NCBI GenBank assembly: GCA_019323355.1
Contig: JAHWHI010000014.1
Span: 1-41,643, forward strand
Length of the DNA: 41,643 nt
DNA from: Candidatus Woesearchaeota archaeon
GTDB taxonomy: Archaea > Nanobdellota > Nanobdellia > Woesearchaeales > WJKV01
Reading direction: 5' to 3'
This document shows positions 1,573 through 27,864 of the stretch, one piece after another; the first letter of the stretch is position 1; each line of letters opens with the position of its first letter. The notes under the pieces are model-generated. The model ran no database searches. It worked only from the letters and a program-made list of their open reading frames with translations, and was not told the origin of the DNA. The position numbers and the translations under genes are program-made.

Positions 1573-2220
1573 ATGCTGGTTTCATTGCAATCTGATATGG
1601 CAAAGAAAGCTGCAAAAAAGAAAACAACAAAGAAAGCAAAGGAAATCAAGAAGGAAAAAGAAGCAAAGAGTGAACCAAAGACCAAGAGCAAGAGAAAACC
1701 AGAGCTAAAAGCAAAGCTCATCTCTGAACGTGTTCTTGTCGAAGCCTCTGATCAAGCCAGAGAGTTGTATAATCAAGGAAGGTACGGAATCATCCTTGAC
1801 AATGGAGAGCTTCAGCTTAACCTGATAGAAGCCTTATTCTTGCTAGAGAAAGGAAAGATCAAGATCATGTCTGGCAGAAAGAAAATGACTGCGCAGACAC
1901 TGATAAAATCTCATGAGGAGCAGGATCCGAATTTCTGGGTAAGATATGTTGTATACAGAGATTTCAGGAATCGCGGATATATCATCAGCACTGCTCTCAA
2001 GTTTGGCGCTGATTTCAGAGTATATGACAGAGGGATGAAGCCTGGCAATGGGCATGCGAAATGGCTTGTCTTTCCAGTATCAGAAGACAAAGTCCTTTCA
2101 TGGTATGAATTTGCTGCAAAGAACCGTGTGGCAACAAGCACAAAAAAAAGACTGCTGATTGGGATTGTCGACAAAGAAAATGATGTCACATATTATGAGA
2201 TAAGATGGATGCGGCCGTAA
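1573..2220 (+). CDS. endA: tRNA-splicing (intron) endonuclease with a Lys-rich N-terminal extension
   Basis: YVVYRDFRNRGYI...LKFGADFRVYD...HAKWLV...KKRLLIGIV matches the EndA catalytic domain (Y/H/K triad context). The alternative ATG at 1597 lies ~26 nt after the TATATAAA at 1566-1573, so a leaderless start is possible. Confidence 0.85.
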   Translation: MLVSLQSDMAKKAAKKKTTKKAKEIKKEKEAKSEPKTKSKRKPELKAKLISERVLVEASDQARELYNQGRYGIILDNGELQLNLIEALFLLEKGKIKIMSGRKKMTAQTLIKSHEEQDPNFWVRYVVYRDFRNRGYIISTALKFGADFRVYDRGMKPGNGHAKWLVFPVSEDKVLSWYEFAAKNRVATSTKKRLLIGIVDKENDVTYYEIRWMRP

Positions 2221-3209
2221 AGATGATGAATAAAAATTCTGTGAATGTGCCTGATAGAATAATCCAAATGATCAGACTTAGAGGGTATGTTCTTCCAACA
2301 GACATCAGCAGGGAACTGAAGATAAACTCGATATTTGCCGGCGCGCATCTATCAGAGATGGTAGACTCTGGAAAGCTGAAGATCTCAAACACTAAAGTCG
2401 GGAGCAGCCCAGCATACTATCTTCCTGAGACTGCATCAAGCTTACAGAACCTGGAGAAATACCTTAATGAGAAGGACCAGAAAACTTTCCAGATATTGAA
2501 AGAGAAAAAAATACTGAGGGAGAAAGATCTTGGTCCGTTGATACAGGTATCATTAAGAAATCTTAAGGATTTCGCTGTTCCGTTGCGGGTGAACAAGGAG
2601 GAGATATTCTGGAAATATTATCTTGTCTCTGATGATGAAGCAGCTGCATTGATAAAAAGTATGATCGAGAATGACAAAGAGATATCTGCTCCAGAGCCAG
2701 TGGTCAAAAAAGAGGAAGTGCCTGAGGCAATAGAAAAAGAAGCGCCTAAGGTTGTGGTGCCAGAACCTATTGTCGCTGCTGAGAAGCCAAAAGCTAAAAA
2801 GAAAGAGAAGAAGGCAGAGCCGAAAAAAGAAAAAGAGATCCAGACAACGATCCCTGATGAGAAAATAGAGCCAAAAGAGAAAATCGAGAAGCCGCAGATC
2901 AAGAATGAATTTTATGACAAGATATCCTCCTACTGCGAGCGGAAAAAAATAAAGATCCTTGATGCTGAGCTTATTAAAAAAGGAGATATCGAGCTAGTGC
3001 TCGAAGTCCCGACTGTCATTGGGAATGTCAAATACTTTGCAAAGGCACGGGACAAAAAACGAAACAATGATGGAGACTTATCTTCAGCATATGTCCGAGG
3101 CCAGACAAAAAATCTTCCTACTGTTTTCCTAACAACAGGAAAAGTCACAAAGAAAGCGCTGGAGATGGTAGGGCAGGATTTCAAGCAAATGATTGTAAAA
3201 GAGATCTAA
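2205..3209 (+). CDS. Uncharacterised protein: two N-terminal winged-helix-like modules, a K/E/P-rich linker and a C-terminal Mrr/PD-(D/E)xK-like fold (degenerate)
   Basis: Long ORF packed tightly between endA (16-nt overlap; alternative ATG at 2223) and fen. Helix-turn-helix-like segments: RIIQMIRLRGYVLPTDISRELKI... and KTFQILKEKKILREKDL... The function is not recognised. Confidence 0.6.
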   Translation: MDAAVKMMNKNSVNVPDRIIQMIRLRGYVLPTDISRELKINSIFAGAHLSEMVDSGKLKISNTKVGSSPAYYLPETASSLQNLEKYLNEKDQKTFQILKEKKILREKDLGPLIQVSLRNLKDFAVPLRVNKEEIFWKYYLVSDDEAAALIKSMIENDKEISAPEPVVKKEEVPEAIEKEAPKVVVPEPIVAAEKPKAKKKEKKAEPKKEKEIQTTIPDEKIEPKEKIEKPQIKNEFYDKISSYCERKKIKILDAELIKKGDIELVLEVPTVIGNVKYFAKARDKKRNNDGDLSSAYVRGQTKNLPTVFLTTGKVTKKALEMVGQDFKQMIVKEI

Positions 3210-11855: not shown

Positions 11856-11915
11856 TTTATTCTTATAGATTTAGCATCAGAAACTTTAATAAATAGAACG
11901 GAATCTTTGTCTAAC

Positions 11916-12866
11916 ATGGAGAATATCTGGACTGAAAAATACAGGCCTTCTAAATTTGAAGAGGTAAAAGGACAGAAGGAAATAGTTTCCAGAGTGAAAG
12001 CTTTTGTCGAGAATAAAAATATGCCTCACCTTCTTTTTTCTGGCCCTGCAGGGGTAGGGAAGACAACATTGGCATTGGTCATTGCAAAACAGATGTTCGG
12101 TGACAACTGGAAAGCTAATGTTCTTGAACTGAATGCTTCTGACGAGCGTGGAATTGATGTGATCCGTGTTAATGTGAAGAATTTTGCGCGGATGCGTGCG
12201 ATTGATGACGTGCCATTCAAGATAATCTATCTGGATGAATGTGACGCTCTCACAAAAGAAGCACAGCAGGCATTGAGAAGGACAATGGAGAACTATACAA
12301 AAACATGTAGATTTGTGCTCTCCTGCAACTATGCTTCTAAGATCATTGATCCGATAAAAAGCAGATGTGCTGTGTTCAAGTTCCTTCCATTGGATAAAGA
12401 GGATATTTTTGAAGTCATTGATAAAATCGCAAAAGAGGAAAAGATATCAGTGGATGAAAAGACAAAACTAGCTTTGTTTGAAGCAAGCAACGGAGACTGC
12501 CGAAAAGTTGAGAACATCATGCAGAGCTGTGCTGCGATCTCGAATACAATAAATGAAGACACTGTCTTTGCCATTGCATCGACTGCAAAACCAAAAGAGA
12601 TCGCAGAGATAATAACACTTGCTGTGAACGGCAAATTTACCAATGCTAGAGACAAGCTATTGAAGACCATGCAAGATTATGGCCTTTCTGGAATTGACAT
12701 CATAAAACAGATAACCAAAGAAGTATGGGGCTTGAATGTGGATGACCGGAAAAAGATCCATATGATCGATACTTGCGGAGAGTGCGAGTTCAGAATAGTA
12801 GAAGGCAGCGATGAATTCATCCAATTAGAGGCTCTTCTTGCAAAGTTTGGGATGAAATTAAATTAA
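11916..12866 (+). CDS. rfcS: Replication factor C small subunit
   Basis: WTEKYRP (RFC box II), GPAGVGKTT (Walker A), IIYLDECD (DEAD-like Walker B), SCNYASKIIDPIKSRC (SRC motif). The TTG at 11907 is an alternative start. Confidence 0.93.
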   Translation: MENIWTEKYRPSKFEEVKGQKEIVSRVKAFVENKNMPHLLFSGPAGVGKTTLALVIAKQMFGDNWKANVLELNASDERGIDVIRVNVKNFARMRAIDDVPFKIIYLDECDALTKEAQQALRRTMENYTKTCRFVLSCNYASKIIDPIKSRCAVFKFLPLDKEDIFEVIDKIAKEEKISVDEKTKLALFEASNGDCRKVENIMQSCAAISNTINEDTVFAIASTAKPKEIAEIITLAVNGKFTNARDKLLKTMQDYGLSGIDIIKQITKEVWGLNVDDRKKIHMIDTCGECEFRIVEGSDEFIQLEALLAKFGMKLN

Positions 12867-12893
12867 GAGAAAAAGAAAATAAAAAAGAAATGC

Positions 12894-13853
12894 TTATTCT
12901 TCTGGAAGCACTGCAATGCTTGTGCTTATTGTTTCTTTGTAGTCATACTGCAGCTTGATATTGATTGACTTTACAAAGTCATTCTGGACAGCAATATCCT
13001 GCTTGCACCTGATGATTGCCTCTCCAGCCCGCAGATCTGCGTAACCAGTATTGTCAGAACCTTCTCTCAGACCAGAACATACAAGGCCTGGAAGTCCAGT
13101 ATCAATCTCTACAAAGACACGGTTCTCGTCAACCCTCTGCGGATTGCAATCACTAGCAAGCCTGTATACCTTTCCGTTTCCTTTTTTCTGGATCCTGAAT
13201 GTGAAAGCCAGTGCTGTTGAGCTTGCTGCATTCTCTGTCAGCTCTACGACCTGTACTGGAGATGCACTGTTCTGGACAACCCGAGAACCATCTACAGCAC
13301 ATACACCTTCTTCCCTGGATCGAAGATCCTTTCGGATACATAATGAGCTTATTGCTTTTGTGCCGTATTTGTAGCAGATGTCAGCCCGTACTGGATAAGT
13401 TGTATCTCCTAAGACCGGCTGTTCCCGATTCAAACTTTCGTAGATAATGTAAACTGCGTTTGACGGAATTACAGTGCCTTGCGGATCCCGATATTTTGCA
13501 AGAAGGTCTTCGTCTGGGTTCTTCCGAGCTTCTGTGTAACCAAATTCTGCAGGATCAAGACCGCTAAGAGTTACTGTGACATCGTCTTTCATAACTTCCC
13601 ATTCACCGTCATTGATCAGCTGGATCTCAACATCAAACGGATCTGCTCCGCCGCTGAAGACCTTATCTCTTGGCCTGTCTGGCGAGAATTCCAATAAAAG
13701 TCCATTTGTTCCGCCAATAAAAGCTCTTGTCTCGACAGTTCCTTTGTCTCCGCCAAAGATCCCACGTTCCTCTCCAACATCTCTTTGTGCGCAGCCTACT
13801 GCTAGAACTGTTATAGCAAGTAAAATCATTGCAATAATATGTAGTTTTCTCAT
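12894..13853 (-). CDS. Putative secreted lipoprotein, paralog 1 of a local family
   Basis: Signal peptide with lipobox (ILLAITVLAVGC), GGAGG SD, beta-rich sequence. Shares CYxYxT...CI, APVxV and C-terminal Y-x-Y blocks with the two neighbouring genes. Confidence 0.7.
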   Translation of the reverse strand: MRKLHIIAMILLAITVLAVGCAQRDVGEERGIFGGDKGTVETRAFIGGTNGLLLEFSPDRPRDKVFSGGADPFDVEIQLINDGEWEVMKDDVTVTLSGLDPAEFGYTEARKNPDEDLLAKYRDPQGTVIPSNAVYIIYESLNREQPVLGDTTYPVRADICYKYGTKAISSLCIRKDLRSREEGVCAVDGSRVVQNSASPVQVVELTENAASSTALAFTFRIQKKGNGKVYRLASDCNPQRVDENRVFVEIDTGLPGLVCSGLREGSDNTGYADLRAGEAIIRCKQDIAVQNDFVKSINIKLQYDYKETISTSIAVLPEE

Positions 13854-13866
13854 GATAAATTCCTCC

Positions 13867-14901
13867 TTAACCGAAGCCTAAATTTTCGATCAAAATTGGC
13901 TGGACAATGCTTTGTGTGACACGGTATTCTGTTTTTATTGTCAAAGGCGTGTTAAGCACGTCAGGTCCAACATCAAGTGTTGCAAAACATGAAAGAACAG
14001 GATTCTCGCGATAGATATTGAACTTATTGTCAGTATTCTTTAACAGCGGACATTCTAGATCTGTTGTTGCAAGTATTGTCGGAGCAACAACTGTGCCTTC
14101 TTCTGTGAACTGGATCCATCCATAATTCTGCCTCTCTAATGGGGCATCTGGATCGCATGCATCGACATCGTCTCCAGTCCTCAAGGATGTTGCCTGTATA
14201 TCGTATATCTTGAGATTCTGGGATTCATCCACTTGGTTAAAATAAATGTCAAACCTTACACGCACCTGGTCAGGACTTATCTTGTCTGTACGGTAATCAA
14301 CCTTTGTGACAGACACTGGTGCTGCCTGGCCTGCTGACAATGTCACAGAAGCCTCTTTTGGACAGCCAGAACCATCTTTCTGGCCACTGCCATCCCTGTC
14401 AATACATATAGGGAAGCTTGCCTGTGTCGCATAATCATAACATGCTGTGATAATCGTATCCTGCTTTAATCTTGGAGTTCCAAGTTCGAGTACATTTTCT
14501 TCGTTCACATCCCCGCTGAATGTGATCAACTGCTCTCCACCTGGACCGTATCTTGTTTTTCCTGGCAGGTCAGATCCCTCTATTTCTTTTTCTTCTTCCT
14601 CATATTCAAGATAACTTGGGTCATAACCATAGATGATCAGTTTCATCGGCCTGTAGGAAGCAAGATCACGTGGAGGCCATCTTCCTAGATTCTTAAGATT
14701 TACAAGGTAAGAAAAACTTTGGCCTGGTGTCAGCTTCATCTCTTCTGGACTCTCCAGAGTGATATCGATTCCGCGCAATCCTTCCAGGTACTGCCCTTCT
14801 TCAAATGCAGGACCCTCATTCTGCTGGTCTCTTGCGCAGGAAACTGAAAAGATTAGCATAGAAATCAGGATAATTGCAAATATTACGTATTTAACCTTCA
14901 T
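13867..14901 (-). CDS. Putative secreted lipoprotein, paralog 2
   Basis: Signal peptide with lipobox (ISMLIFSVSC). Conserved blocks ACYDYATQASFPICI, GQAAPVSVTKVD and IKTEYRVTQSIV. Confidence 0.7.
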   Translation of the reverse strand: MKVKYVIFAIILISMLIFSVSCARDQQNEGPAFEEGQYLEGLRGIDITLESPEEMKLTPGQSFSYLVNLKNLGRWPPRDLASYRPMKLIIYGYDPSYLEYEEEEKEIEGSDLPGKTRYGPGGEQLITFSGDVNEENVLELGTPRLKQDTIITACYDYATQASFPICIDRDGSGQKDGSGCPKEASVTLSAGQAAPVSVTKVDYRTDKISPDQVRVRFDIYFNQVDESQNLKIYDIQATSLRTGDDVDACDPDAPLERQNYGWIQFTEEGTVVAPTILATTDLECPLLKNTDNKFNIYRENPVLSCFATLDVGPDVLNTPLTIKTEYRVTQSIVQPILIENLGFG

Positions 14902-14988
14902 TTTTCATCCATCACTTTTATACTGTTCTTAATAGGGATTCTATATATAAACCTTTTGATTGGTTCCATATATGGATTATATATGATT

Positions 14989-15963
14989 TTATCTATTGAC
15001 AACTATCTTTTTTATTGTCAGTTGCTTTGATTCACCGATTTTATAGGCATATCTCAAACTTATCTGCAGGGGCGAGCGGGTTGCTGGCTTTCGCGGAAGG
15101 TCTACCACTTCACATTTGATCTTTGCCATGTTGTTGTCAAGATGAGTGTCTCTGCTGCAAGTCATAGCATCTCCGCCTGTCTGGGAATCAAAACTGTAAT
15201 CTGTTGAAAGCTGGACTGCAAAATCAAAATTGTTCAAAGTATCTTTTGGATATCCGCCAGGACCGCAGACCAAATCCAATGTTGATTTATCTCCAGGATA
15301 TTTCCTGTGGCGAAAGACCTGACCTTCTCCTTTATTTTCTACTGTGATGACAAAGGTAAGCTTGACTTTATCCTCAGGAACGTTTGTTATTATCTCTTCG
15401 ACATCTGTGACTGCAAGAGGTGCTCCCTGACCTTCAGAAAGATTAAGTTTCTTATTAGCTTCCTCGAACTCGCAGGTGAATGCTCCTACTCTCGCTCCGA
15501 TGCATCCGATCATATCTGCGATTGTCTCATAAGAATAACATAAGTTTACAGGAACTTCGACCTGAAGATCTTCTGTTGCAAAATCTATTGGTCCGGCCTT
15601 GAAAGTGAATATCTCTGGAGCTGGGACATAACCTCCGCTTGGATTATAGGAAGACCGCCCCTCGATCTTGTCCAGTTTTCTTGATGCTGTTGATTCATTG
15701 ATCAATGGAGGAGAAGATCCTAGGACAAGGATGCTTTCCTCTGCAGTATAAGCGCCTTTATTGTGGAGATCAACCTGCACCATGAAGATGTCATTCACAT
15801 ATACGTCTGTCTTTGGGAAGTCTGTAAAAGAGTACTCAAGACCACTATATCCTATCCTGTAAAGTTCTTTTTCATAAGTGTCATACATACCTAAATCACA
15901 TGCTGCTGCCAGAACTAAAACTGTAAGCAAACTAAATGCTAGTAATATTTGTTTGTGGTTCAT
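14989..15963 (-). CDS. Putative secreted lipoprotein, paralog 3
   Basis: Signal peptide with lipobox (LTVLVLAAAC). Conserved blocks LCYSYETIADMIGCI, GQGAPLAVTDVE and ISLRYAYKIGES. The start overlaps the end of the upstream gene by 32 nt. Confidence 0.7.
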   Translation of the reverse strand: MNHKQILLAFSLLTVLVLAAACDLGMYDTYEKELYRIGYSGLEYSFTDFPKTDVYVNDIFMVQVDLHNKGAYTAEESILVLGSSPPLINESTASRKLDKIEGRSSYNPSGGYVPAPEIFTFKAGPIDFATEDLQVEVPVNLCYSYETIADMIGCIGARVGAFTCEFEEANKKLNLSEGQGAPLAVTDVEEIITNVPEDKVKLTFVITVENKGEGQVFRHRKYPGDKSTLDLVCGPGGYPKDTLNNFDFAVQLSTDYSFDSQTGGDAMTCSRDTHLDNNMAKIKCEVVDLPRKPATRSPLQISLRYAYKIGESKQLTIKKIVVNR

Positions 15964-18900
15964 TTTTCTTCAAACAATCTGGATCCCTTATGATAAGCTG
16001 CTCCTTTTTATTAGTGTTTTGATATAATGTTTTTAAATCCAGACTCTTGCCGTCTTTTGTTATCTTGAATGTTAAATCCTTGCCAGCATAACCGACAAGT
16101 TCTCCTTTTGCAATGTTCCCTGCTTTTCTTGCTCTTCTGATGCCTTCAAAGGTTGTAGTATATCCATTTGGATGTTTGATCTCCAGACCAGAATCTCCCT
16201 TCACTGAAACTTCCCCGCTTTCAGGAGAAACAATCTTTTGATTTTCTGCACTGATCTTGACTTCTTTCAAACCATCTATGCATTTGCTGATGGCTTTTGT
16301 GTCAGCTGGCCAAATAAACATATCCTCGACTGGAAAGCCACGGCACATGCTGAACTCGTCATCCCAATCACAATTGATATTGCACGGGTCCAACAGGCAT
16401 TGCTCTTTGTTTGGATATTCTGAGCAACTCATGCTAGATCCACAGGATTCACAAGAATCCCCGACAACCCATTCTGCGACTGTCCGTGAAGCTGAGATTC
16501 CCAGTGCAGGACTTATCAGGTATGTGCCAGCTTCTGATATTGCTGTTGCAGTAGGTTTTCTTGATGCATACTGCCAATAACAATTGTTTCCGCACGCATC
16601 AATATCACAATATTTTCTATCCGGATAGTCACAACCAGAAACATCTGTCAGGCAGGTGTCATACAAAGATCCTTTCGGGTTGATACCGGGTGCAAGAGTT
16701 TTATCATAATCTTTTATACGAACCACTGTCTTTGCTGATAAAGTATAACGATATCGTGCAACTGATTTTATGTAGTATGGAGTGACATCAACACCAGTAA
16801 GGATTGCATTTGGGTTTACAGCTTCTATACGGCAGTTGAATGTCCTGAAATTTTCAATGTTAGTATCCAGAGGTTTTTTCAGTCCGTACTCAACTTCGTT
16901 TGTCTTTGGAAGGTCAGCCACTTTTACAAATTCTGGAGTGCATCCTTCTGCCATCTTGAAAACATTCGGCATTATGACACTGATATTATGGATGGCTGTT
17001 ATCTTTCCGTTCCTCCACTGATTCTTCAGTGTGACACCCATTGCAGCGCCCCTGTCCTGGGCAATGATTGCTCCGGTTATTCCTTCAAAACCGAGTGTTG
17101 CTGCTGCTGTCGGCATTTCCTCCTCATATCCAGCACCAATTGCTCCTGACTGGACAGCTATAACAGAACCCTCTGAAAAACCAACTCCAACCATCACTGG
17201 TCCTGGAGTGTACTGGGCTTCTGGTTCTGGAATCCCTTTTGCTTGCAGGACGGTCTCTCCCTGTCTCTGGAATTCAAGTTTTAGTTCCCGGTCAACAAAA
17301 TATGCTTTGTAGTATCCGACTGTTATGAAATCAAAGTCTGCTTTGAACTCTACTTTTTTAGCTCCTGGCTCTAACGGAGTGAAGTCACAATCAACACGCT
17401 CTCCTCCAAATACCAAGTCAGAGAAATTCGCACGCTGAGGATAGACCCTGCCGACACCTTCTCCTTCTATCTCACAGGACAGGTCAATGACGCATTCTGC
17501 AAGATTCTCCTTTCCAGAGCAGATATCTGAAGCCAATGAGTTTCCGCTCAACTCTGCTGTGACTGATGCAGGAATCCCACGTTCGAATGTAATATCTCCC
17601 ACTTTGCTTGGAGCTAACTTGACACCGTAATTCTTATCTTTAGAGGCGTCGACTGTTGCTGTGAAAGCGTCTCCTGTTGCCAGCGCGACCTGCTCACCCC
17701 ACCAGTCTTTTGCCCATTGCATTGGACGTATATCTTCTGCCCAGATCTCAACTTTTTTCTGCTGGAAAGCAACGTCAATGATTCCAGTCTCGTATAGATT
17801 ATTAGCATATTTTCCGACTGGAACCTGGAAGTAAACCATCCCAGCGACAACCAGGATTATCATTATCATTGCATAAGCAATATTGTGGAGCTCGAGGCCT
17901 TCGCCTTTTTTCAGCTCGCGCAATTCTCTTCTCTTTGGGTTGAAAATGTAATCCAGAATGTAAATTATCGGTACGCAGATCACATACGTTGGAATCAAAT
18001 CTGCGCCTGGAATAAACTCTATAACAACAGGGATGAAAGCAAAAAGGTAAGTGTAGGGAGTTCCGCCCATAGATCTTCCAATCAAATACCCTGTGATTGG
18101 TTCTGCGATATCTCCGATTCCAGGAACTGCAAGACCGACATAATCTAAAGCGTCACTGATGATCGCGATTATCATCGCAAGCCAGAAATGCACTGGAAGC
18201 TCTTTTGTCAGCTGGCCGATACGCTGCCTTTTAGAGATTGCCTCTGCTCTTCTCGAGGCTGAGACTGCCTCTCTTCTTTCTTCTCGAGCTTCTTCAGCTT
18301 CTCTTTCTGCAATTTTCAATTCTCCTTTCTGGATCTGGGCTGCCTCTTTCACAGCCTCTGTCTTTGCAGCCTCTTTTGCTGCTGTCTCTTTTGCAGCCAC
18401 TGTCCCGGCTTTCTCGCTTGCAAATATTTTTGCAAAATCTCCAAGCTTGCTTCCTACTGTAGAGACGCGTTCTCCGAATGTGGGGCCTGGTGCGCCTGCA
18501 TAAGCAGGTTCATAATATTCATACGCAGAAACTTCTGATGCTGCATATCTTCCCCTTCCAAACGGCTTGAACTTTGCAAAGAATGGAAGCACTAGATGAT
18601 ATATCAGATAGATGTGCAATGCTCCGAAACCAAAGAACATCAGGACCAAAACAAATGTAATAATATTCTGCTTGAAAACTTCTCTGAAAGATTCACTGTC
18701 CATCGACCTGTAGCTGACAAATACAAATACGAACAGGCCGAATATCCAGAATACTTTGTTATCATGAAGAATATCCAAAGGAAAGTATTGTGAAAGATAA
18801 GCCTGCGCTCTAGGAAACTGCGCAAAGACAACTGCGAAAAGCGCAGCAACAAAGAAGACAGCAACATCTTTTGCATCCCCTTGTTTTTCTGGAATCATGC

Positions 18901-19177
18901 CGAAAGGATCTCCTTCTCCACGCGCGAGCCTGTGCTCGTGGAACTCGACCTTTACCCAGTGAAGCGGAATTATTGCGAGAAGAGCCCAGGGCGAGATAAA
19001 AACCGCAACCATCACATAGACCATCCAGTTGCCTGGCTGTTTAAGCGGATTCTTATGGCCTGGATCTGCAGCGAGAATAAACAAAACAAGACGGATAATT
19101 ACTAATACACCTATAAGAGAAGTTGCAACACCTGGTATTGGAAGGTATAGATTGATAAATTCATCGACAGTCCCCAT
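15932..19177 (-). CDS. 1081-aa polytopic membrane protein with a cytoplasmic coiled-coil loop, a large Cys-rich ectodomain and a C-terminal degenerate LytM/M23-like domain
   Basis: ATG with GGGGAT SD. About 9 hydrophobic helices in the first ~450 aa are interrupted by an A/E/K/R coiled-coil (~18225-18425). The remaining ~600 aa are beta-rich with many Cys. No confident family assignment. Confidence 0.75.
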   Translation of the reverse strand: MGTVDEFINLYLPIPGVATSLIGVLVIIRLVLFILAADPGHKNPLKQPGNWMVYVMVAVFISPWALLAIIPLHWVKVEFHEHRLARGEGDPFGMIPEKQGDAKDVAVFFVAALFAVVFAQFPRAQAYLSQYFPLDILHDNKVFWIFGLFVFVFVSYRSMDSESFREVFKQNIITFVLVLMFFGFGALHIYLIYHLVLPFFAKFKPFGRGRYAASEVSAYEYYEPAYAGAPGPTFGERVSTVGSKLGDFAKIFASEKAGTVAAKETAAKEAAKTEAVKEAAQIQKGELKIAEREAEEAREERREAVSASRRAEAISKRQRIGQLTKELPVHFWLAMIIAIISDALDYVGLAVPGIGDIAEPITGYLIGRSMGGTPYTYLFAFIPVVIEFIPGADLIPTYVICVPIIYILDYIFNPKRRELRELKKGEGLELHNIAYAMIMIILVVAGMVYFQVPVGKYANNLYETGIIDVAFQQKKVEIWAEDIRPMQWAKDWWGEQVALATGDAFTATVDASKDKNYGVKLAPSKVGDITFERGIPASVTAELSGNSLASDICSGKENLAECVIDLSCEIEGEGVGRVYPQRANFSDLVFGGERVDCDFTPLEPGAKKVEFKADFDFITVGYYKAYFVDRELKLEFQRQGETVLQAKGIPEPEAQYTPGPVMVGVGFSEGSVIAVQSGAIGAGYEEEMPTAAATLGFEGITGAIIAQDRGAAMGVTLKNQWRNGKITAIHNISVIMPNVFKMAEGCTPEFVKVADLPKTNEVEYGLKKPLDTNIENFRTFNCRIEAVNPNAILTGVDVTPYYIKSVARYRYTLSAKTVVRIKDYDKTLAPGINPKGSLYDTCLTDVSGCDYPDRKYCDIDACGNNCYWQYASRKPTATAISEAGTYLISPALGISASRTVAEWVVGDSCESCGSSMSCSEYPNKEQCLLDPCNINCDWDDEFSMCRGFPVEDMFIWPADTKAISKCIDGLKEVKISAENQKIVSPESGEVSVKGDSGLEIKHPNGYTTTFEGIRRARKAGNIAKGELVGYAGKDLTFKITKDGKSLDLKTLYQNTNKKEQLIIRDPDCLKKNEPQTNITSI

Positions 19178-19208
19178 AATCTAAGATCCCCTTTTTTGAT
19201 AGAGCTGT

Positions 19209-20417
19209 TCAGCTCTCGATTTCTATTGTGATTTCAAGACCTGTTACATCAATCCCACTGCTACGAGGGACAAGCTTGATTGCATTGGTTCCATCAATCA
19301 AGTAATCGTCAATCTCCTGTGAGAACACCTCTCCGCGCTCTCCAATGTGGATTGTCCTACCGTTAATGTAAACATCAAGATTCTTGAACTCTGGGCTTAC
19401 AAAACTTAAATAGAGCATTGCAAGCACATCATCCTCTTCCTGGATCTCATAAAGATCCTCCTCTTCAAGCTCAAAGTAGTAAGTAGGAGCAATTGGTTCT
19501 TTGAAACTTTGTATTATCTGGATATTATCAACAATGTAATTTCCCGTTGTTGTCTTGAAAGTAAGGTCATTCTCGCCAGTCATCAGCTTATCTGGCAGGA
19601 AGTCGATCACTACAGGAGATCCGCATAACGGAATTGTTTTTGAAAGCAATTGGTTGTTCACCAATATCTCAAGCGGACCGACATTTCCAGGGCTACACTC
19701 TGGAAGATATTTTAAAGTTAATTTCTTGGTATTCAAAAGATCGTCAGTAGTGATGATGAACTTGTTTGTGCTTGACAATTTAGATATGTCGCGGACATCA
19801 CCAGTTATCTGGATAGTTTCCAGGAGATAGCTGTTTGTCGCCCAGAATCTTATTCCTGGACTGCTCACCCTAAACTCAAGAACATTCTCTCTCTGCAACA
19901 GTTGCCTTGGTATCTCGACCGGCGGATTTGTAGGCTGGGATAGCTCACTGTTGAAGATCTGCTTTCCGTTCATGAAAATTATCAATCTGCCAGAATACTT
20001 TTTTGCATTGAATGACAACAAGATACTGTCAGTATTATCTGGATCAGCAAGTATAAAATGGAAAGTGTCTGGCTCTGCACTGAACAGACTGCGTTCAGTA
20101 TAGATAGAAGCTGCTCTTGCAAGCTGTTTGCTCTTAACTTCTGAAGACAGGAATGAAGCAGGAAGGTACAGCCTGTTCTGGGTTGCTGTAAGAGTGTCAA
20201 GCCTTCCAGGTGTTTTTGATAGTAAGATGTATCCGCCCATTGAAGGGATTGTAGGAGTTGTAGGCTGAAAACCTGAAGGTCCTTCTGTGCCTTCCAACAG
20301 CTCTGTCCGATGTTCTGGCGGGACAAGCAAGATATAAAGAATTATTACAACTGCAATCAAAGCAACTAGTGCTGCTGCTCCGCTTCCAGCATCACCTCTT
20401 CTATTCTTTCTAACCAT
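19209..20417 (-). CDS. N-terminally anchored protein with three ~95-aa internal repeats (beta-sandwich-like)
   Basis: ATG 20417 is preceded by GGTGA (the ORF-track GTG is at 20426). It has a basic N-terminus plus a hydrophobic helix (AAALVALIAVVIILYILLV), then three repeats sharing L-x-L-x-[FY]...L-x-[IV]-x-[VM]-N-[GN]...G-x-N-x-[LI]...I-x-I. Confidence 0.7.
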   Translation of the reverse strand: MVRKNRRGDAGSGAAALVALIAVVIILYILLVPPEHRTELLEGTEGPSGFQPTTPTIPSMGGYILLSKTPGRLDTLTATQNRLYLPASFLSSEVKSKQLARAASIYTERSLFSAEPDTFHFILADPDNTDSILLSFNAKKYSGRLIIFMNGKQIFNSELSQPTNPPVEIPRQLLQRENVLEFRVSSPGIRFWATNSYLLETIQITGDVRDISKLSSTNKFIITTDDLLNTKKLTLKYLPECSPGNVGPLEILVNNQLLSKTIPLCGSPVVIDFLPDKLMTGENDLTFKTTTGNYIVDNIQIIQSFKEPIAPTYYFELEEEDLYEIQEEDDVLAMLYLSFVSPEFKNLDVYINGRTIHIGERGEVFSQEIDDYLIDGTNAIKLVPRSSGIDVTGLEITIEIES

Positions 20418-20442
20418 AACGCTCACCTGCTGACAAATAATA

Positions 20443-20532: not shown

Positions 20533-21570
20533 ATGAAAATCATACGCAAAGACCTAAAAAATGGCGAAATCAAATTCAGGATCACTAATCTAGATGACTT
20601 GTGGTTCCTGAGCCATATGATTGAATCTGGAGATTTGATTAAAGGCAAGACTACCCGGAAGATCAAGGTCGGAGCAGACCAGAAGGATGTTGCGAAAAAA
20701 ACATTTTTCCTGGCAATAGAAGTTGAGAAGATAGATTTCCAGCCGAATGTTCTCAGAGTATCTGGTATCATCAAATCCGGACCAGATGAAATCACCCTAG
20801 GTTCGCATCAAAGTTTCAGCCTGGAGCTGAATTCAGAAGCAACACTTGTAAAAGAAAAATGGATGAAACACCAGCTGCAAAAACTTGACGATGCTGTGAA
20901 AGAAAGAGCAGAAATACTTATCTGTGCACTTGACCGGGAGAGTGCAGGTTTTGCTTTGATGAAACCACAAGGATATTCCATGATATCAGAAATAGAGGGA
21001 CAGGTCGAGAAGAAAGGATATGAACAGACTTCTGTTGACTTCTATGCAGAGATTGTGAAAAAACTTCAAGAATATTCTGAGAGATACAAGCCGACCAAGA
21101 TCATTGTTGCAAGCCCTGCTGTCTGGCGAGAGAACATAAGTGCAAAGATCCCTGCTGACATGAAAAAGAAAGTCCTGTTCGCGACATGCGCCAGCGGCGG
21201 AAAGAGGGGCATTGATGAAGTCCTGAAAAGCGACGAACTCAAGTCTGCACTAAAAGAGGATAGAACAACAAAAGAAGTCTCGCTTGTCGAGGACCTGCTT
21301 TCAGAGATATCAAAGAATGGAAAAGCAAGCTATGGTTTTGATGCAATCAAAGGTTGTGTTGAAGCAGGAGCTGTTGAGACATTGCTTATTGTAGACAAGT
21401 TTCTTTTTGAGAGCAAAGAAAAAGGAAATTATACAAAGATAGACAAGCTAATGCAGAAGACAGAACAGATGCAGGGAAATGTCTTTATCATAAGCTATGA
21501 GCACGAAGCAGGAAAAAAATTATACGGATTAGGCGGGATGGGAGCCTTGCTCAGATATAAAATAGATTAA
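20533..21570 (+). CDS. pelA: Pelota (mRNA surveillance / ribosome rescue factor)
   Basis: N-terminal Sm-like DLWFLSHMIESGDLI plus central and eRF1-like C-terminal domains (ATCASGGKRG, VETLLI, GGMGALLRY). Confidence 0.9.
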   Translation: MKIIRKDLKNGEIKFRITNLDDLWFLSHMIESGDLIKGKTTRKIKVGADQKDVAKKTFFLAIEVEKIDFQPNVLRVSGIIKSGPDEITLGSHQSFSLELNSEATLVKEKWMKHQLQKLDDAVKERAEILICALDRESAGFALMKPQGYSMISEIEGQVEKKGYEQTSVDFYAEIVKKLQEYSERYKPTKIIVASPAVWRENISAKIPADMKKKVLFATCASGGKRGIDEVLKSDELKSALKEDRTTKEVSLVEDLLSEISKNGKASYGFDAIKGCVEAGAVETLLIVDKFLFESKEKGNYTKIDKLMQKTEQMQGNVFIISYEHEAGKKLYGLGGMGALLRYKID

Positions 21571-25905: not shown

Positions 25906-27480
25906 ATGTTGAGGAAAGGGTTATTGCTGGGAATCGTATTCTTGTTCTTACTAATTCCAGTTGTTTATGCTGACAATCCTGTGATCTTTGATGATTTTGT
26001 AAATGTGGATGAGACCGCAAAGACAAGCATCGGAGAATTTTCAGTAAGATATTATGATAAGGGGGATAGGCAGGACACAATGGTCCTGGAGAAAACTGAC
26101 GAAAGCGATTTCCGTCTGCTTATCGATGATGGTGAGTGCGAATATGACCAGCAGTATAAGTTCTGTTTCCAGGGAAGCCAGCTCGGAAAACATGATTATG
26201 AAAAGGATATTGACATCATGGCTGTGAAACTTCGTATCGAAGAGATGGTTCCGTCCATAGAGCGTACTATAGCTAAAAAAAGCTTGGTTCCTGGCGAAGA
26301 GACAGAAGCAACTGTTACAATCACAATCCCAGAAGGAAGAAGAGCAATTATTTCGTATTCTGAAACTTTTCCTCAAGAGATTAGAATCGATTCTGGAAAA
26401 GGATATGTCCAAGGGAATACACTTAAATTTGAAGGAAAAGTAGACGGGGTTTTCACCTTAACATATACACTAAAACTCATGGCGCAGGAGATGGCGCCAT
26501 TCGATGCTAAAGGTTTGTTGAGCTATGATTTCGAGGGTAAAACAGGAAAACTCACAACATCTGAGATCACACTTACAAAACTTAATGATATGGAGATAGA
26601 GATAGAATTTGACCCAGAAGAAGCTGAGCTCGGAGAAGAAGTTGAATTAGAGATTAATTTAGATAAAAAAGTTGATGACAGCCTGGATATAAAGAGACTT
26701 GAAATTATATTTCCAAAAGGGACCCAGTATCTCCAGACAGATACAGAGTTTGAACAGGAGGGGGATACGCATTACTGGACACAGACTAGACTTACTGAAG
26801 ACAAAGAATATGTCTATAAGATAGTACAGAACACTGCTGGAAATTATTCTGTAAAGATTATAGCTAAAACTGACAGAAATGGAAACGAGCAATACCAGGA
26901 AAAAGTTGCTGTCCTCAAGTCTGCGATAAAAGACCTTTACTTGGGCCTGACATTTCCATCGACAATAACCTATCCTAAAAATGTCAAGCTAAAAGCATAT
27001 TTTGAAAATAAGAATGCAAATACAAAGTTTGAGGAGATTAAATGCACCATTACCGGAGATCTGTACAACAAAGAGGATTTTTCATTTGGAAATTCTTTTC
27101 CTGGAAAAAGAACTAATATCGTTGACGAATACCTAAAGCTTGCTGATACTTCTCCAAGAAAACTTACGCATACTTTTGCATGCACGTACAAACTTCCTAC
27201 CGGCGAGATACGTGCGGTCCAGATAACTAAAGAGAGCCAGGTCAATGTCACTGAAGCTGAACTTGGTGATGAAGAAGAAGAAGGCGAAGAGCTGGAAGAA
27301 GGAATTGATAGGAAGCTTGGATTCAAGGACAGTGAAGAAGAGCCTGAGGAAACAACTGAAGAGAAAGAAGATCAAGAGGAAAAAGAGGGCGGGTTCTTCA
27401 AAAAGATAATCAACTGGTTCAAGAACTTATTCTCTGGTGAAGATGCTGAAGAAATAGATGAAGATGAAATAAAAGAATGA
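25906..27480 (+). CDS. Secreted beta-rich protein with an acidic C-terminal tail and a terminal amphipathic segment
   Basis: Signal peptide LLLGIVFLFLLIPVVYA/DNP, Ig-like-fold-style stretches (LVPGEETEATVTITIPEG), an E/D-rich tail and then GFFKKIINWFKNLFSG. No family recognised. Confidence 0.7.
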   Translation: MLRKGLLLGIVFLFLLIPVVYADNPVIFDDFVNVDETAKTSIGEFSVRYYDKGDRQDTMVLEKTDESDFRLLIDDGECEYDQQYKFCFQGSQLGKHDYEKDIDIMAVKLRIEEMVPSIERTIAKKSLVPGEETEATVTITIPEGRRAIISYSETFPQEIRIDSGKGYVQGNTLKFEGKVDGVFTLTYTLKLMAQEMAPFDAKGLLSYDFEGKTGKLTTSEITLTKLNDMEIEIEFDPEEAELGEEVELEINLDKKVDDSLDIKRLEIIFPKGTQYLQTDTEFEQEGDTHYWTQTRLTEDKEYVYKIVQNTAGNYSVKIIAKTDRNGNEQYQEKVAVLKSAIKDLYLGLTFPSTITYPKNVKLKAYFENKNANTKFEEIKCTITGDLYNKEDFSFGNSFPGKRTNIVDEYLKLADTSPRKLTHTFACTYKLPTGEIRAVQITKESQVNVTEAELGDEEEEGEELEEGIDRKLGFKDSEEEPEETTEEKEDQEEKEGGFFKKIINWFKNLFSGEDAEEIDEDEIKE

Positions 27481-27864
27481 TTATTTGGTTTCTTTCTTCT
27501 TAGTCTCTTTTTTCTTTGCAGGTTTCTGCGATTTTGCTGCTTTCTTAGGCTTGGCTTCTGCTTCTGGAACAGCAGTTCTCTTTTTGCCTTTTCTTTTCTT
27601 GACTGGTTTCTGTGTCTTTGGCTTGCTCTTCTTTTCTTTTATCTCGATTCCCAGCTTTTTGAATGCAGAAACAACATCAGAATGAGATGCGTTTTCTTTC
27701 AATGCAAGAACCTGTTTCAATGGTTGAAGGTGCTTGATATTACACTTTTTTCTTCTGGTCTCGCCATCTATCAAAACAAGGTTGTTTTCAGGTGAAGAAA
27801 TAACTACGCATTTCAGGCCTGCGTCCCTGCCTGCTATCTTCATGCATAATGTGCCGATCTTCAT
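27481..27864 (-). CDS. rpl14e: 50S ribosomal protein eL14 with a Lys-rich C-terminal extension
   Basis: KOW-type N-terminus IGTLCMKIAGRDAGLKCVVI...NIKHLQPL as in archaeal L14e. The stop abuts the stop of the convergent gene at 27480. Confidence 0.8.
   Translation of the reverse strand: MKIGTLCMKIAGRDAGLKCVVISSPENNLVLIDGETRRKKCNIKHLQPLKQVLALKENASHSDVVSAFKKLGIEIKEKKSKPKTQKPVKKRKGKKRTAVPEAEAKPKKAAKSQKPAKKKETKKKETK

Follow-up and report, generated by a model that had tools for sequence, protein, structure and literature searches.

A conserved five-gene cassette of exported and membrane proteins in Woesearchaeota with exchangeable murein-hydrolase heads on its polytopic member

Introduction

A contig of Candidatus Woesearchaeota archaeon (GCA_019323355.1, JAHWHI010000014.1), of which the 41,643 nucleotides analysed are called the window below, carries five adjacent genes between two conserved informational genes, the small subunit of RFC and pelota. 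Which role does such a block play in a tiny, probably host-dependent archaeon? Many biosynthetic pathways are missing from DPANN Archaea, and the large extracellular SLT proteins known in Woese- and Pacearchaeota have been proposed to attach to bacterial walls and degrade them (PMC8204110). Murein hydrolases are regarded as normally absent from Archaea, and these ones are interpreted as bacteria-directed (PMC8204110; PMC9723730). In addition, co-variation with bacteria that have peptidoglycan was observed for Woesearchaeota MAGs encoding a lytic murein transglycosylase (PMC9723730), and killing of bacteria by archaeal PG hydrolases has been shown experimentally (PMC12352652).

Gene order and expression signals

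All five genes are located on the minus strand: A (19209-20426, 405 aa from a GTG start), B (15932-19177, 1081 aa), C (14989-15963, 324 aa), D (13867-14901, 344 aa) and E (12894-13853, 319 aa). The ORF listing agrees exactly with the co-directional arrangement described in the initial annotation, with 31 nt between A and B, a 32-nt overlap of B and C, 87 nt between C and D and 13 nt between D and E. The flanking genes named there were recovered as well, the RFC small subunit at 11907-12866 (plus strand; Rep_fac_C/AAA) and pelota at 20533-21570 (plus strand; eRF1_1/eRF1_3), and the SD sites GGTGA, GGGGAT and GGAGG are all present. GGGGAT precedes the start of B by 14 nt and GGAGG that of E by 13 nt. 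GGTGA (20427-20423) overlaps the GTG of A; an in-frame ATG at 20417, 5 nt downstream, is preceded by the SD sequence AGGTGA (20428-20423). This ATG is more likely the true start of A than GTG 20426, because the resulting 402 aa match the ortholog.

Two TATA-like boxes on the minus strand, TTTATAAAA (20475-20467) and TTTTATATATAAATA (20459-20445), can be read 5' of A in the 106-nt divergent intergenic region common to A and pelota. The second one is centred about 26 nt upstream of GTG 20426, and the two may form the promoter of gene A. At the other end of the cassette the T-rich tract TTTCTTTTTTATTTTCTTTTTCTC (12867..12890, minus strand) directly follows the stop codon of E, within the 27 nt that separate E from the convergent RFC gene; it is a candidate archaeal oligo-T terminator.

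Conservation and synteny

The order A-B-C-D-E recurs in about 40 Woesearchaeota/Nanoarchaeota loci from MAGs and metagenomes (31 metagenomic loci were recovered with E as probe), so that both the gene set and its linkage are kept in related genomes. All homologs with a named source belong to Woesearchaeota, Nanoarchaeota or Nanobdellota. The neighbours are nearly constant across these loci, TrmB-pelota on one side and RFCs-PRC-Cas4-like on the other, and the gene order persists even where identity has fallen to 35 % in E and to about 26 % in B. All five genes are under purifying selection, with dN/dS values of 0.055-0.106 in comparison to the L001 orthologs, for which synonymous sites are close to saturation; the value for pelota is 0.052. 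The low dN/dS and the block order kept in about 40 independent loci argue that the ORFs are real and more than chance ORFs.

The same synteny effectively refutes the idea that the block is a viral or other mobile module which sits here by chance, for instance a cluster of prophage tail lysins or of conjugation hydrolases. Swappable PG-hydrolase heads (see below) are typical of phage tail proteins and T4SS hydrolases, and phage M23 lysins are among the BFVD matches, but such an origin is hardly credible for a cassette with an identical pelota-RFC position across deeply diverged genomes. Neither an integrase, ATPase, capsid or tail gene nor flanking repeats nor a meaningful PHROGs match was found, the GC content of the cassette (41-46 %) lies within the window background (38-46 %), and the viral structure matches are confined to the M23 fold.

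The single-pass protein A and the lipoproteins C, D and E

A is the first cassette gene in every locus. Its product contains one hydrophobic segment, an N-terminal anchor at residues 11-41, and is predicted to be a single-pass surface protein. An alignment of 24 family sequences shows a conserved N-terminus ([KR][KR][GA]..AATLIGIIT..FYILFLPPEER), two invariant Cys and repeated NG..I......L..G.N motifs. The three repeats look jelly-roll-like by eye, and a CBM-like structure in the PDB is matched without significance (E 0.41). Sequence searches of Pfam, NCBIfam, PHROGs and the PDB returned no hit for A.

The lipobox proteins C, D and E are paralogs and consist of tandem Ig-like beta-sandwiches. 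Their lipoboxes (LAAC|D in C, SVSC|A in D, AVGC|A in E) follow an n-region and an h-region, and this arrangement with [LVI]-x-[GAS]-C is found in 80 of 81 family members from 27 loci, including all 27 orthologs of C. The paralogy is evident from BLASTP (C-D 4e-10, C-E 6e-7) and from hhalign probabilities of 100 % (C-D), 99.5 % (C-E) and 99.6 % (D-E). For D, an AF2 model from 7 sequences (mean pLDDT 70.6, pTM 0.68) shows two beta-sandwich domains at about residues 45-167 and 183-339; the mature chain has six conserved Cys. The Foldseek matches of D are all generic and comprise integrin alpha legs, Fabs, MG domains of complement/alpha-2-macroglobulin and an adhesin Ig-like region. The mature part of C has no Pfam or PDB match, and E is the most conserved member of the cassette with 35-56 % identity over all loci (alignment A4).

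It had been suggested that four of the five products share one domain. Homology is detectable for C, D and E alone, whereas comparisons of B with C/D/E and of A with each other product stay below 1 % probability in hhalign, even with profiles of 21-28 sequences. The tandem beta-sandwiches modelled by AF2 in both D and the core of B are a generic likeness only.

Architecture of protein B

The initial annotation regarded every product as exported or anchored. This applies to the lipobox proteins and to the anchored A, but B opens with a multi-pass membrane domain: about 9 hydrophobic helices precede residue 456, and an N-terminal signal peptide is missing. The block is nevertheless a genuine, tightly packed set of exported and membrane proteins. 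The AF2 model of B (12 sequences, mean pLDDT 66.6) is, like that of D, of moderate quality as the alignments are shallow, and the structural matches of both are generic beta-sandwiches except for the LytM domain.

The N-terminal membrane domain (residues 1-203; 18569..19177, minus strand) has about 5 helices by hydrophobicity and a pLDDT of 55-78. It is restricted to long B proteins, among which it is conserved (alignment A2); short B proteins of about 500 aa do not possess it as such. A charged, low-complexity/coiled-coil linker follows (residues 204-330; 18188..18568, minus strand), poorly conserved in A2 and presumably cytoplasmic, with a pLDDT below 50 at residues 204-293 and then a long helix at 286-326. 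Matches of this linker to CHMP1B and bL17 are spurious. The second membrane block (residues 331-456; 17810..18187, minus strand), delimited by hydrophobic segments and conservation in A2, contains the motifs ISDALDY...PGIGD...EFIPGADLIP and ends with a helix that runs into the ectodomain. D342 is invariant, and D345 and P352 occur in at least 90 % of the A2 sequences. One homolog of B matches DUF4112 (E 3.5e-9); the block of the window protein itself has no Pfam match.

The ectodomain is rich in Cys (20 residues) and starts with the B-core (residues ~470-830; 16688..17770, minus strand), two beta-sandwich subdomains with a pLDDT of 75-90 which are the part common to the whole B family. At E<1e-3 an exhaustive HMMER search with B found 430 representatives, of which 135 also pass E<1e-10; most match only residues ~485-830. 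Cys553, 562, 568, 597 and 782 are invariant and Cys746 nearly so. The core has no Pfam match, and Foldseek returned generic beta-rich structures (AglB/STT3 soluble domain, integrin legs, MG domains). The C-terminal soluble domain of AglB/STT3 (2zag, 2zai, 3vu1) gave the top Foldseek E-value of the B model (7e-6 over about 350 columns), and both proteins combine a polytopic membrane part with a following extracellular beta-rich domain. However, TM-scores are 0.17-0.19, the rmsd 12-13 A and the identity 9 %. There is no Pfam STT3 match, and WWDYG is absent, with just a non-conserved WWGEQ present; the likeness is treated as a generic resemblance of beta-domains.

Behind the core lie two Cys-knot repeats (residues ~830-950; 16328..16690, minus strand) with the pattern C..V..C.YP....CD.DPC..NC.W, also without a Pfam match. 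They are modelled with a pLDDT of about 80 and separated by a low-confidence linker (below 50 at residues 873-905); the Cys between 842 and 945 are conserved in at least 90 % of the A2 sequences.

The degenerate LytM head

B ends in a degenerate LytM domain (dLytM) of the M23 fold (residues ~950-1070; 15968..16330, minus strand); its NCBI product name already reads M23 family metallopeptidase. The match to Pfam Peptidase_M23 (E 5.7e-5, 23.7 bits) remains under the cut-off of 28.7. AF2 models the domain with a pLDDT of 80-90, and Foldseek retrieves Csd1/Csd2, LasA, a Neisseria M23 protein and the LytM of PrgK with a probability of 1.0 (TM 0.45-0.50, rmsd 3.4-4.5 A). Profile matches comprise Pgp3 (6jmx, E 1.7e-4) and SpoIIQ (3tuf, E 4.7e-4), in whose alignments the catalytic His positions are gapped or substituted. 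The zinc/catalytic residues HxxxD and HxH are missing, and none of 14 family members has His/Asp there; judged by these residues, the head of the window protein is catalytically dead. A peptidoglycan-binding domain (LysM, SPOR, PG_binding) was not found in Pfam searches. The earlier view that no product can be assigned to a family thus applies to the four other proteins, which lack Pfam, NCBIfam and PHROGs matches, and is not quite right for B because of its M23/LytM-like end.

SpoIIQ is the degenerate-LytM half of an intercellular channel, and its match could hint at a conduit, in which the polytopic part of B makes up or gates a channel that moves metabolites or lipids beyond mere attachment and the ectodomains of A, C, D and E with the dLytM bridge to the partner cell like the SpoIIQ-SpoIIIAH feeding tube. 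A multi-pass membrane domain always precedes the core in B, and the pathways missing from DPANN Archaea (PMC8204110) would fit such an exchange. However, the SpoIIQ match is at the level of a fold common to all M23 proteins, the membrane domain is poorly conserved between long and short forms, and neither an ATPase nor a recognisable transporter family nor a ring-forming domain was found, which makes a conduit unlikely.

Bacterial dLytM proteins such as EnvC and NlpD typically regulate hydrolases of the cell's own wall, and the closest structural matches of the head include the cell-shape peptidases Csd1-Csd2 and Pgp3. An autolysin or morphogenesis complex which remodels a wall polymer of the archaeon itself, in the style of FtsEX-EnvC-amidase or Csd1/Csd2, is nonetheless very improbable: no murein-synthesis gene occurs in the 41-kb window or in about 40 inspected flanks, the cassette encodes no partner amidase, and the literature interprets archaeal murein hydrolases as directed against bacteria (PMC8204110; PMC9723730).

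Hydrolase heads across the B family

What is new here is that one B scaffold carries interchangeable murein-cleaving heads across homologs. Among 104 scanned homologs, recruited via the core (query residues ~485-830) and not via the head, there are 46 in which the core is followed by a recognised peptidoglycan hydrolase domain. SLT prevails with 33 cases; Amidase_2, NlpC/P60, 3D, Glucosaminidase and M23 were counted twice each and M15_4, Lysozyme_like and SLT_2 once each. About 12 further homologs carry a sub-threshold dLytM. Headed proteins also occur within the same kind of cassette, namely a 3D-headed B between pelota and RFC (L041) and two SLT-headed ones (L039, L042). Most cassettes sampled, about 27 of about 40, encode a short B of 490-630 aa without any head; the core function of the complex therefore needs no murein-directed domain.

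The headless majority suits a general envelope structure of the archaeon's own, e.g. an S-layer anchor, a pseudo-periplasm scaffold or a coat, which is unrelated to bacterial walls and to whose abundant surface-exposed carrier hydrolase heads were added secondarily in some lineages. The universal cassette in synteny with core informational genes, the generic Ig-like tandem sandwiches of C/D/E and the B-core, typical of archaeal surface proteins, the inactive head of the window protein and the identity of E, fitting a structural core, point the same way. On the other hand, at least eight murein-cleaving families fused independently at one scaffold position are hard to understand for a scaffold that does not lie at a murein interface, and S-layer proteins are usually single, very abundant and fast-evolving and not encoded by five genes with a polytopic membrane subunit. 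We consider this explanation possible, although doubtful.

A proposed apparatus at bacterial contact sites

With moderate confidence we propose a lineage-wide, vertically inherited surface apparatus which acts on murein at the sites of contact with bacteria. The variable murein-cleaving heads on B make bacterial contact sites the most likely place of action, and the host-contact module suggested initially, a functional guess at that time, gains real though indirect support from these heads. The five proteins probably form one complex exposed on the cell surface, with murein as its presumable target and a bacterium as the likely host. B would serve as the scaffold embedded in the membrane, its extracellular two-sandwich core following a polytopic anchor. 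A, C, D and E would be its fixed extracellular partners and probably build an adhesive platform or stalk on the external side of the membrane. At its distal C-terminus, B has a modular slot for diverse peptidoglycan-cleaving heads, left empty in many lineages. Such an apparatus would most likely grip bacterial partners or prey and open their murein locally at the contact site. The head of the window clade, two Cys knots and a dead LytM, should bind, or serve for docking or regulation as EnvC, NlpD and SpoIIQ do, and not cut. The cassette is thus a good candidate for the means by which these Archaea hold on to bacterial partners or break into them.

Comparison with known systems

The closest known counterparts are the SLT proteins of Woese- and Pacearchaeota (fam00969, PMC8204110; Vigneron et al. 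2022, PMC9723730), which stem from the same organisms as the B family, are likewise extracellular and membrane-anchored and were proposed to act on bacterial walls. The fam00969 proteins are likened to the B family by description and annotation; the B-family members P0044, P0067 and P0087 are annotated like them and have the B-core in common with the window protein, which bears a dead LytM in place of the SLT domain. Both studies treat the SLT proteins alone, without a conserved scaffold, a fixed locus, four obligatory partners or interchangeable heads.

PrgK of the E. faecalis pCF10 T4SS (LytM + SLT + CHAP), VirB1, FlgJ, phage tail-tip lysins and tape-measure proteins resemble B as membrane- or machine-anchored proteins with variable murein hydrolase domains, and the PrgK LytM (8s0u) and phage M23 lysins are among the structural matches of B. 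In contrast to these machines, the cassette is archaeal and chromosomal, and genes for a secretion ATPase, a coupling protein, a pilin or a tail are absent from it and its surroundings. Nor do the machines contain homologs of the B scaffold, A or C/D/E.

In the dLytM factors EnvC, NlpD, Csd2 and SpoIIQ, the domain is a binding or activating module or, in SpoIIQ, half of an intercellular bridge. The B head shares with them the M23 fold with lost zinc/catalytic residues, but the sequence similarity is marginal (E 1e-4 to 1e-3), and the coiled-coil architecture of EnvC, LysM and a known amidase or SpoIIIAH-like partner are missing. Unlike in these factors, the LytM of B follows two Cys knots and forms the tip of an archaeal polytopic protein of 1081 aa.

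Polymorphic effectors (evolved VgrG/PAAR, Rhs, CdiA, LXG) combine a constant delivery scaffold with a variable C-terminal effector. The B family resembles them in its constant TM part and core with variable C-terminal heads from unrelated murein-hydrolase families, but has no immunity genes, secretion system or sequence relationship in common with them. Its heads are all wall hydrolases and not assorted toxins, and in contrast to the variable islands of polymorphic effectors the cassette locus is vertically inherited.

Organisation and conservation of the gene cassette

The five genes A to E lie on the minus strand between the gene for the RFC small subunit (11907–12866, convergent to the cassette) and pelota (20533–21570, divergent from it), both of which are the flanking genes named in the initial annotation. 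The open reading frames are A (19209–20426, 405 aa), B (15932–19177, 1081 aa), C (14989–15963, 324 aa), D (13867–14901, 344 aa) and E (12894–13853, 319 aa), and the ORF listing confirms intervals of 31 nt (A–B), 87 nt (C–D) and 13 nt (D–E) and an overlap of 32 nt between B and C. Genes for a PRC-barrel protein and a Cas4-like protein follow beyond one flank, those for TrmB and PheRS beyond the other. All three Shine-Dalgarno-like motifs described before are present: GGGGAT is found upstream of B, GGAGG upstream of E, and GGTGA at 20427–20423 (AGGTGA 20428–20423). Since the latter is located 5 nt upstream of an in-frame ATG at 20417, and translation from this codon gives 402 aa, the same length as the ortholog at the compared locus L001, the start of A is probably ATG 20417 and not the GTG at 20426 of the longest ORF. 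The promoter may be represented by two TATA-like boxes upstream of A, and the terminator by the T-rich tract 3′ of E. A scan for bacterial promoters and terminators carries no information for an archaeon, its counts being the same as in shuffled controls; nothing relevant came from scans for repeats, tRNAs and Rfam families in the region or the window.

In comparison to their L001 orthologs, A to E show 67–82 % amino acid identity and dN/dS values of 0.055–0.106, similar to pelota (0.052), with synonymous sites near saturation. Judged by their sequences, all five are real genes. Elsewhere in the window, an ORF of 524 aa (25906–27480, plus strand) downstream of PheRS-beta has no Pfam match, and an unannotated gene of 527 aa at the same position in L001 has none either. 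Two further ORFs without a Pfam match (2205–3209, plus strand, 334 aa; 27481–27864, minus strand, 127 aa) are found next to genes for a tRNA-splicing endonuclease, FEN1/XPG, Trm5/TYW2 and the ribosomal/SecY cluster.

Distribution among related genomes

An exhaustive HMMER search with B yielded 430 representatives at E<1e-3, of which 135 reach E<1e-10. Full-length look-alikes with 24–33 % identity number about a dozen; all others match in the core alone (residues ~485–830). A word-indexed homolog search found near-identical relatives only, and the concatenated profile of all five proteins retrieved there just three proteins, all of the A family. Related loci were collected by pattern searches of species-representative genomes (6, with a five-sequence B alignment) and of metagenomic sequences (31) and via contig look-ups (5); their ORFs were called and assigned to families by jackhmmer. 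On every contig of sufficient length the genes stand in the order A-B-C-D-E on a single strand, and the linkage of the five genes is thereby established for related genomes as well. The flanks are almost always TrmB and pelota on one side and the RFC small subunit, PRC-barrel and Cas4-like genes on the other, occasionally with one to three small genes inserted. Because order and flanks are kept even where identity falls to 35 % for E and ~26 % for B, the cassette and its position are, on this comparison, ancestral to a large Woesearchaeal clade. Every homolog with a named source belongs to Woesearchaeota, Nanoarchaeota or Nanobdellota. A long B (836–1470 aa) occurs in the clade of the window and some others, and a short B (490–630 aa), consisting of the polytopic N-terminus and the core only, in most loci.

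One contig labelled as an uncultured Methanosarcinales archaeon (CAZXEZ010000051.1, locus L007:1–7764) carries B-C-D-E and the RFC, PRC-barrel and Cas4-like genes arranged as at L006 and L031 of Woesearchaeota, and the N-termini of the proteins are nearly identical to those encoded there; the contig is thus probably of Woesearchaeal origin and was mis-binned into a MAG of Methanosarcinales. Many short-B loci contain two or three small ORFs (130–220 aa) between pelota and A which are missing in the window, e.g. L005:5277–5930 and L005:5936–6328 (minus strand), both with signal peptides and rich in Tyr and Asp; similar ones exist in L009, L011, L012, L014, L020, L022, L028 and L030. These may be additional components. 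In one subclade a gene of ~309 aa is inserted between E and the RFC gene (L006:11960–12886, also L018, L031 and L036). Extra ORFs near the cassette in some loci were considered as hydrolases and rejected, their N-termini being housekeeping-like by eye (NUDIX-like, PolD-like).

The membrane-anchored protein A and the lipobox proteins C, D and E

Apart from a sub-threshold M23 match, neither whole-protein scans of A to E against Pfam, NCBIfam and PHROGs nor searches of Pfam with ten domain slices gave a match. Searches of the PDB with A, B, the joint profile of C, D and E, a deep A profile and a profile of the B core returned only signal-peptide, low-complexity or transmembrane noise. The lack of PHROGs matches, the fixed synteny and the unremarkable composition all speak against a mobile or viral origin of the cassette, which we consider hardly credible. 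Genes for ATPases, pilins, tail proteins or integrases, as expected for T4SS, T6SS, T7SS or a prophage, are absent from the flanks in the window and from about 40 related loci.

The export signals proposed in the initial annotation are borne out by prediction: C, D and E have a lipobox, A an N-terminal anchor, and B is polytopic. The predicted lipobox signals (C LAAC|D, D SVSC|A, E AVGC|A) combine a positively charged n-region, a hydrophobic h-region and the motif [LVI][ASTVIG][GAS]C, which is present in 80 of 81 C, D and E homologs; in the PDB the N-terminus of the joint profile matches bacterial lipoprotein signal peptides with E 0.2 only. The mature chains have a common set of conserved cysteines. 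With pairwise BLASTP values of 1e-5 to 5e-11 (21–25 % identity) and hhalign probabilities of 99.5–100 % for 27-sequence profiles, C, D and E are, at the level of sequence, mutual paralogs. The claim that four of the five products share one domain has to be narrowed to these three: hhalign finds no relationship of the B core to C, D or E (B against C, D and E <1 %) or of A to any of the others. An AF2 model of D from a shallow alignment of 7 sequences (pLDDT 70.6, pTM 0.68) consists of two beta-sandwich domains, and its Foldseek neighbours in the PDB are integrin legs, Fabs, macroglobulin domains and the Ig-like region of an adhesin; as modelled, the fold is a generic tandem Ig-like architecture.

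In protein A, a single hydrophobic anchor at the N-terminus bears the strongly conserved motif K/R-rich...FYILFLPPEER and is followed by three repeats of the pattern NG..I....L..G.N, which by eye (and with one non-significant match) are reminiscent of jelly-roll/CBM domains. Variants of ~570–585 aa (P0158–P0160; L039:2092–3843; L042:311–2029) contain a Cys/Asp-rich insertion of ~170 aa between repeats 2 and 3, composed of repeats of CGDxDxxCPxGC...DxDCC; in L039 and L042 the insertion co-occurs with an SLT-headed B.

Domain architecture of protein B

Protein B starts with about five transmembrane helices (residues 1–203) and a disordered, charged coiled-coil linker (204–330). A second membrane block (331–456, window 17810–18187) contains conserved acidic and PG.GD motifs. 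It is followed by a beta-rich core of two subdomains with conserved cysteines (~470–830, pLDDT 75–90), two Cys-knot repeats (~830–950) and a C-terminal domain (~950–1070); the AF2 model was built from a shallow alignment of 12 sequences. The motifs ISDALDY..PGIGD..EFIPGADLIP of the second membrane block resemble DUF4112; PF13430 is matched by one B homolog (E 3.5e-9), and the window segment 331–456 is without a Pfam match. Foldseek aligns the core with the soluble domain of AglB/STT3 at E 7e-6, but with a TM score of 0.18 and an rmsd of 13 Å; B has no Pfam STT3 match, and WWDYG is absent, only a non-conserved WWGEQ being present. On the model, this AglB-like match is a lead only. The core and D are both tandem beta-sandwiches with generic Foldseek neighbours in common (9fh8, 7akk, integrin legs), which is not evidence of homology.

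The statement that none of the products can be assigned to a family no longer applies to B, the C-terminal domain of which adopts a LytM (M23) beta-fold (~950–1065, pLDDT 80–90). Taken alone, the domain matches Peptidase_M23 (PF01551) with E 5.7e-5 and 23.7 bits, under the gathering score of 28.7; full-length B has no PF01551 match, and as a single sequence the domain finds no significant match in the PDB. Foldseek returns Csd1/Csd2, LasA, 6muk, 6ik4 and the LytM domain of the T4SS hydrolase PrgK (probability 1.0, TM 0.45–0.50, rmsd 3.4–4.5 Å), and a viral fold library gives M23-fold matches only. In the PDB, a 14-sequence profile of the domain matches Pgp3 (6jmx, E 1.7e-4) and SpoIIQ (3tuf, E 4.7e-4). 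As a role for the cassette, a SpoIIQ-style intercellular conduit is improbable.

In the window protein and its 13 aligned homologs all catalytic signatures are missing. The stretch corresponding to the HxxxD zinc ligands reads ..GLKEVKISAENQKIV.., with no conserved His or Asp in this column in 14/14 members; the YyHL of Pgp3 with the catalytic His of the YxHL motif aligns to TFEGI; and the sGpHLHF containing the HxH motif is gapped or replaced (KDLTFKI), without a His in any of the 14. Conserved instead are R1017, G1020, N1021 and the pair Cys966–Cys1068. The C-terminal domain is therefore a degenerate LytM fold, kept as such across orthologs. From its residues the head of the window protein cannot be a peptidase, and since the domain is non-catalytic, ‘M23 family metallopeptidase’, the name given by NCBI to the identical protein, probably misleads about its function. 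A homolog of 370 aa (P0023) carries the twin Cys-knot and degenerate LytM head on an unrelated N-terminus, with neither the B core nor an obvious hydrophobic segment, and the head is thus a portable module.

Exchangeable heads in the B family

Pfam scans of 104 homologs of the B core, taken from two alignments (40 and 64 members), reveal a variety of heads C-terminal to the core. An SLT domain is found in 33 of them; Amidase_2, NlpC/P60, 3D, Glucosaminidase and Peptidase_M23 occur twice each, and Peptidase_M15_4, Lysozyme_like and SLT_2 once each. Ig-like additions (fn3, PKD) exist as well. The head-bearing homologs were retrieved via the core they have in common with the query and not via the head, in which the query differs; B of the window has no Pfam match to SLT. 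Its core (~485–830) matches P0022, P0031, P0034, P0044, P0067 and others with E values of 1e-14 to 1e-29, and these proteins have a Pfam SLT domain and are named SLT proteins by NCBI. P0022 and P0043, whose SLT heads were read completely, keep the canonical E-S...G[LI]MQ signature. At L041 a 3D-headed B is located between pelota and RFC, surrounded by A, C, D and E, and at L039 and L042 an SLT-headed B has A-like and C/D/E-like neighbours. With such diverse hydrolase heads on one core, and hydrolase-headed B proteins in the same slot of the cassette, the C-terminal position after the core is a modular site, filled repeatedly by cutters of different murein bonds or by a dead LytM domain, or left empty.

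A possible surface apparatus directed at murein

Most parsimoniously, the cassette may encode a vertically inherited surface apparatus in which B would form the scaffold in the membrane, the three lipobox proteins and A would be its fixed extracellular partners, and the head on B would be aimed at murein. For this mechanism as a whole we see about even chances; the statements on structure and conservation stand on much firmer ground than those on function. To our knowledge, Archaea do not make murein, and no murein-synthesis genes are present in any flank inspected, which would make the wall of bacterial partners or prey the most likely target; remodelling of the cell's own wall is very unlikely. 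Most cassettes are head-less and Ig-like folds are generic, both of which would suit an envelope structure serving the cell itself, onto which heads were grafted secondarily. This explanation is possible, though we doubt it.

A large part of the diversity of Archaea belongs to Woesearchaeota and their relatives, and we know of no host or attachment mechanism that has been established for them. The host-contact idea of the initial annotation gains indirect strength from the peptidoglycan-hydrolase heads of B homologs. In a bolder and speculative version, A-B-C-D-E would be an organelle for host interaction that is shared by the whole order and has not been described before in Woesearchaeota: a five-protein surface spike whose scaffold exchanges murein-cutting or -binding heads in the manner of a polymorphic effector, matched to the wall chemistry of bacterial hosts. 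If so, bacteria and not Archaea would be the principal partners of a very large uncultured archaeal group, and the head sequence would be a genomic predictor of host type. The five proteins are concrete targets for testing, with head type as a possible sequence marker of bacterial host range.

Comparison with known systems

Earlier genomics described scattered ‘large SLT proteins’, the patchy distribution of which was taken as horizontal transfer. By homology, these proteins appear to fall into one family (possibly the published fam00969), whose membrane scaffold is conserved, whose place in the chromosome is fixed and which is always accompanied by four partner genes. Since they belong to the scaffold family of a fixed five-gene cassette, their patchy occurrence could be explained by exchange or loss of heads on a universal platform and not by wholesale gene gain. 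In type IV pilin-like proteins the [KR]-[GA] cleavage site of the class III signal peptide directly precedes the hydrophobic helix; in protein A, considered as such a protein, 4–8 polar or small residues stand between the conserved K/R-K/R-R-G/A-Q/D and the helix, which is atypical. EnvC, NlpD, Csd2 and SpoIIQ are degenerate LytM factors with binding, docking or regulatory roles, and by likeness to them a role of this kind is expected for the head of the window protein.
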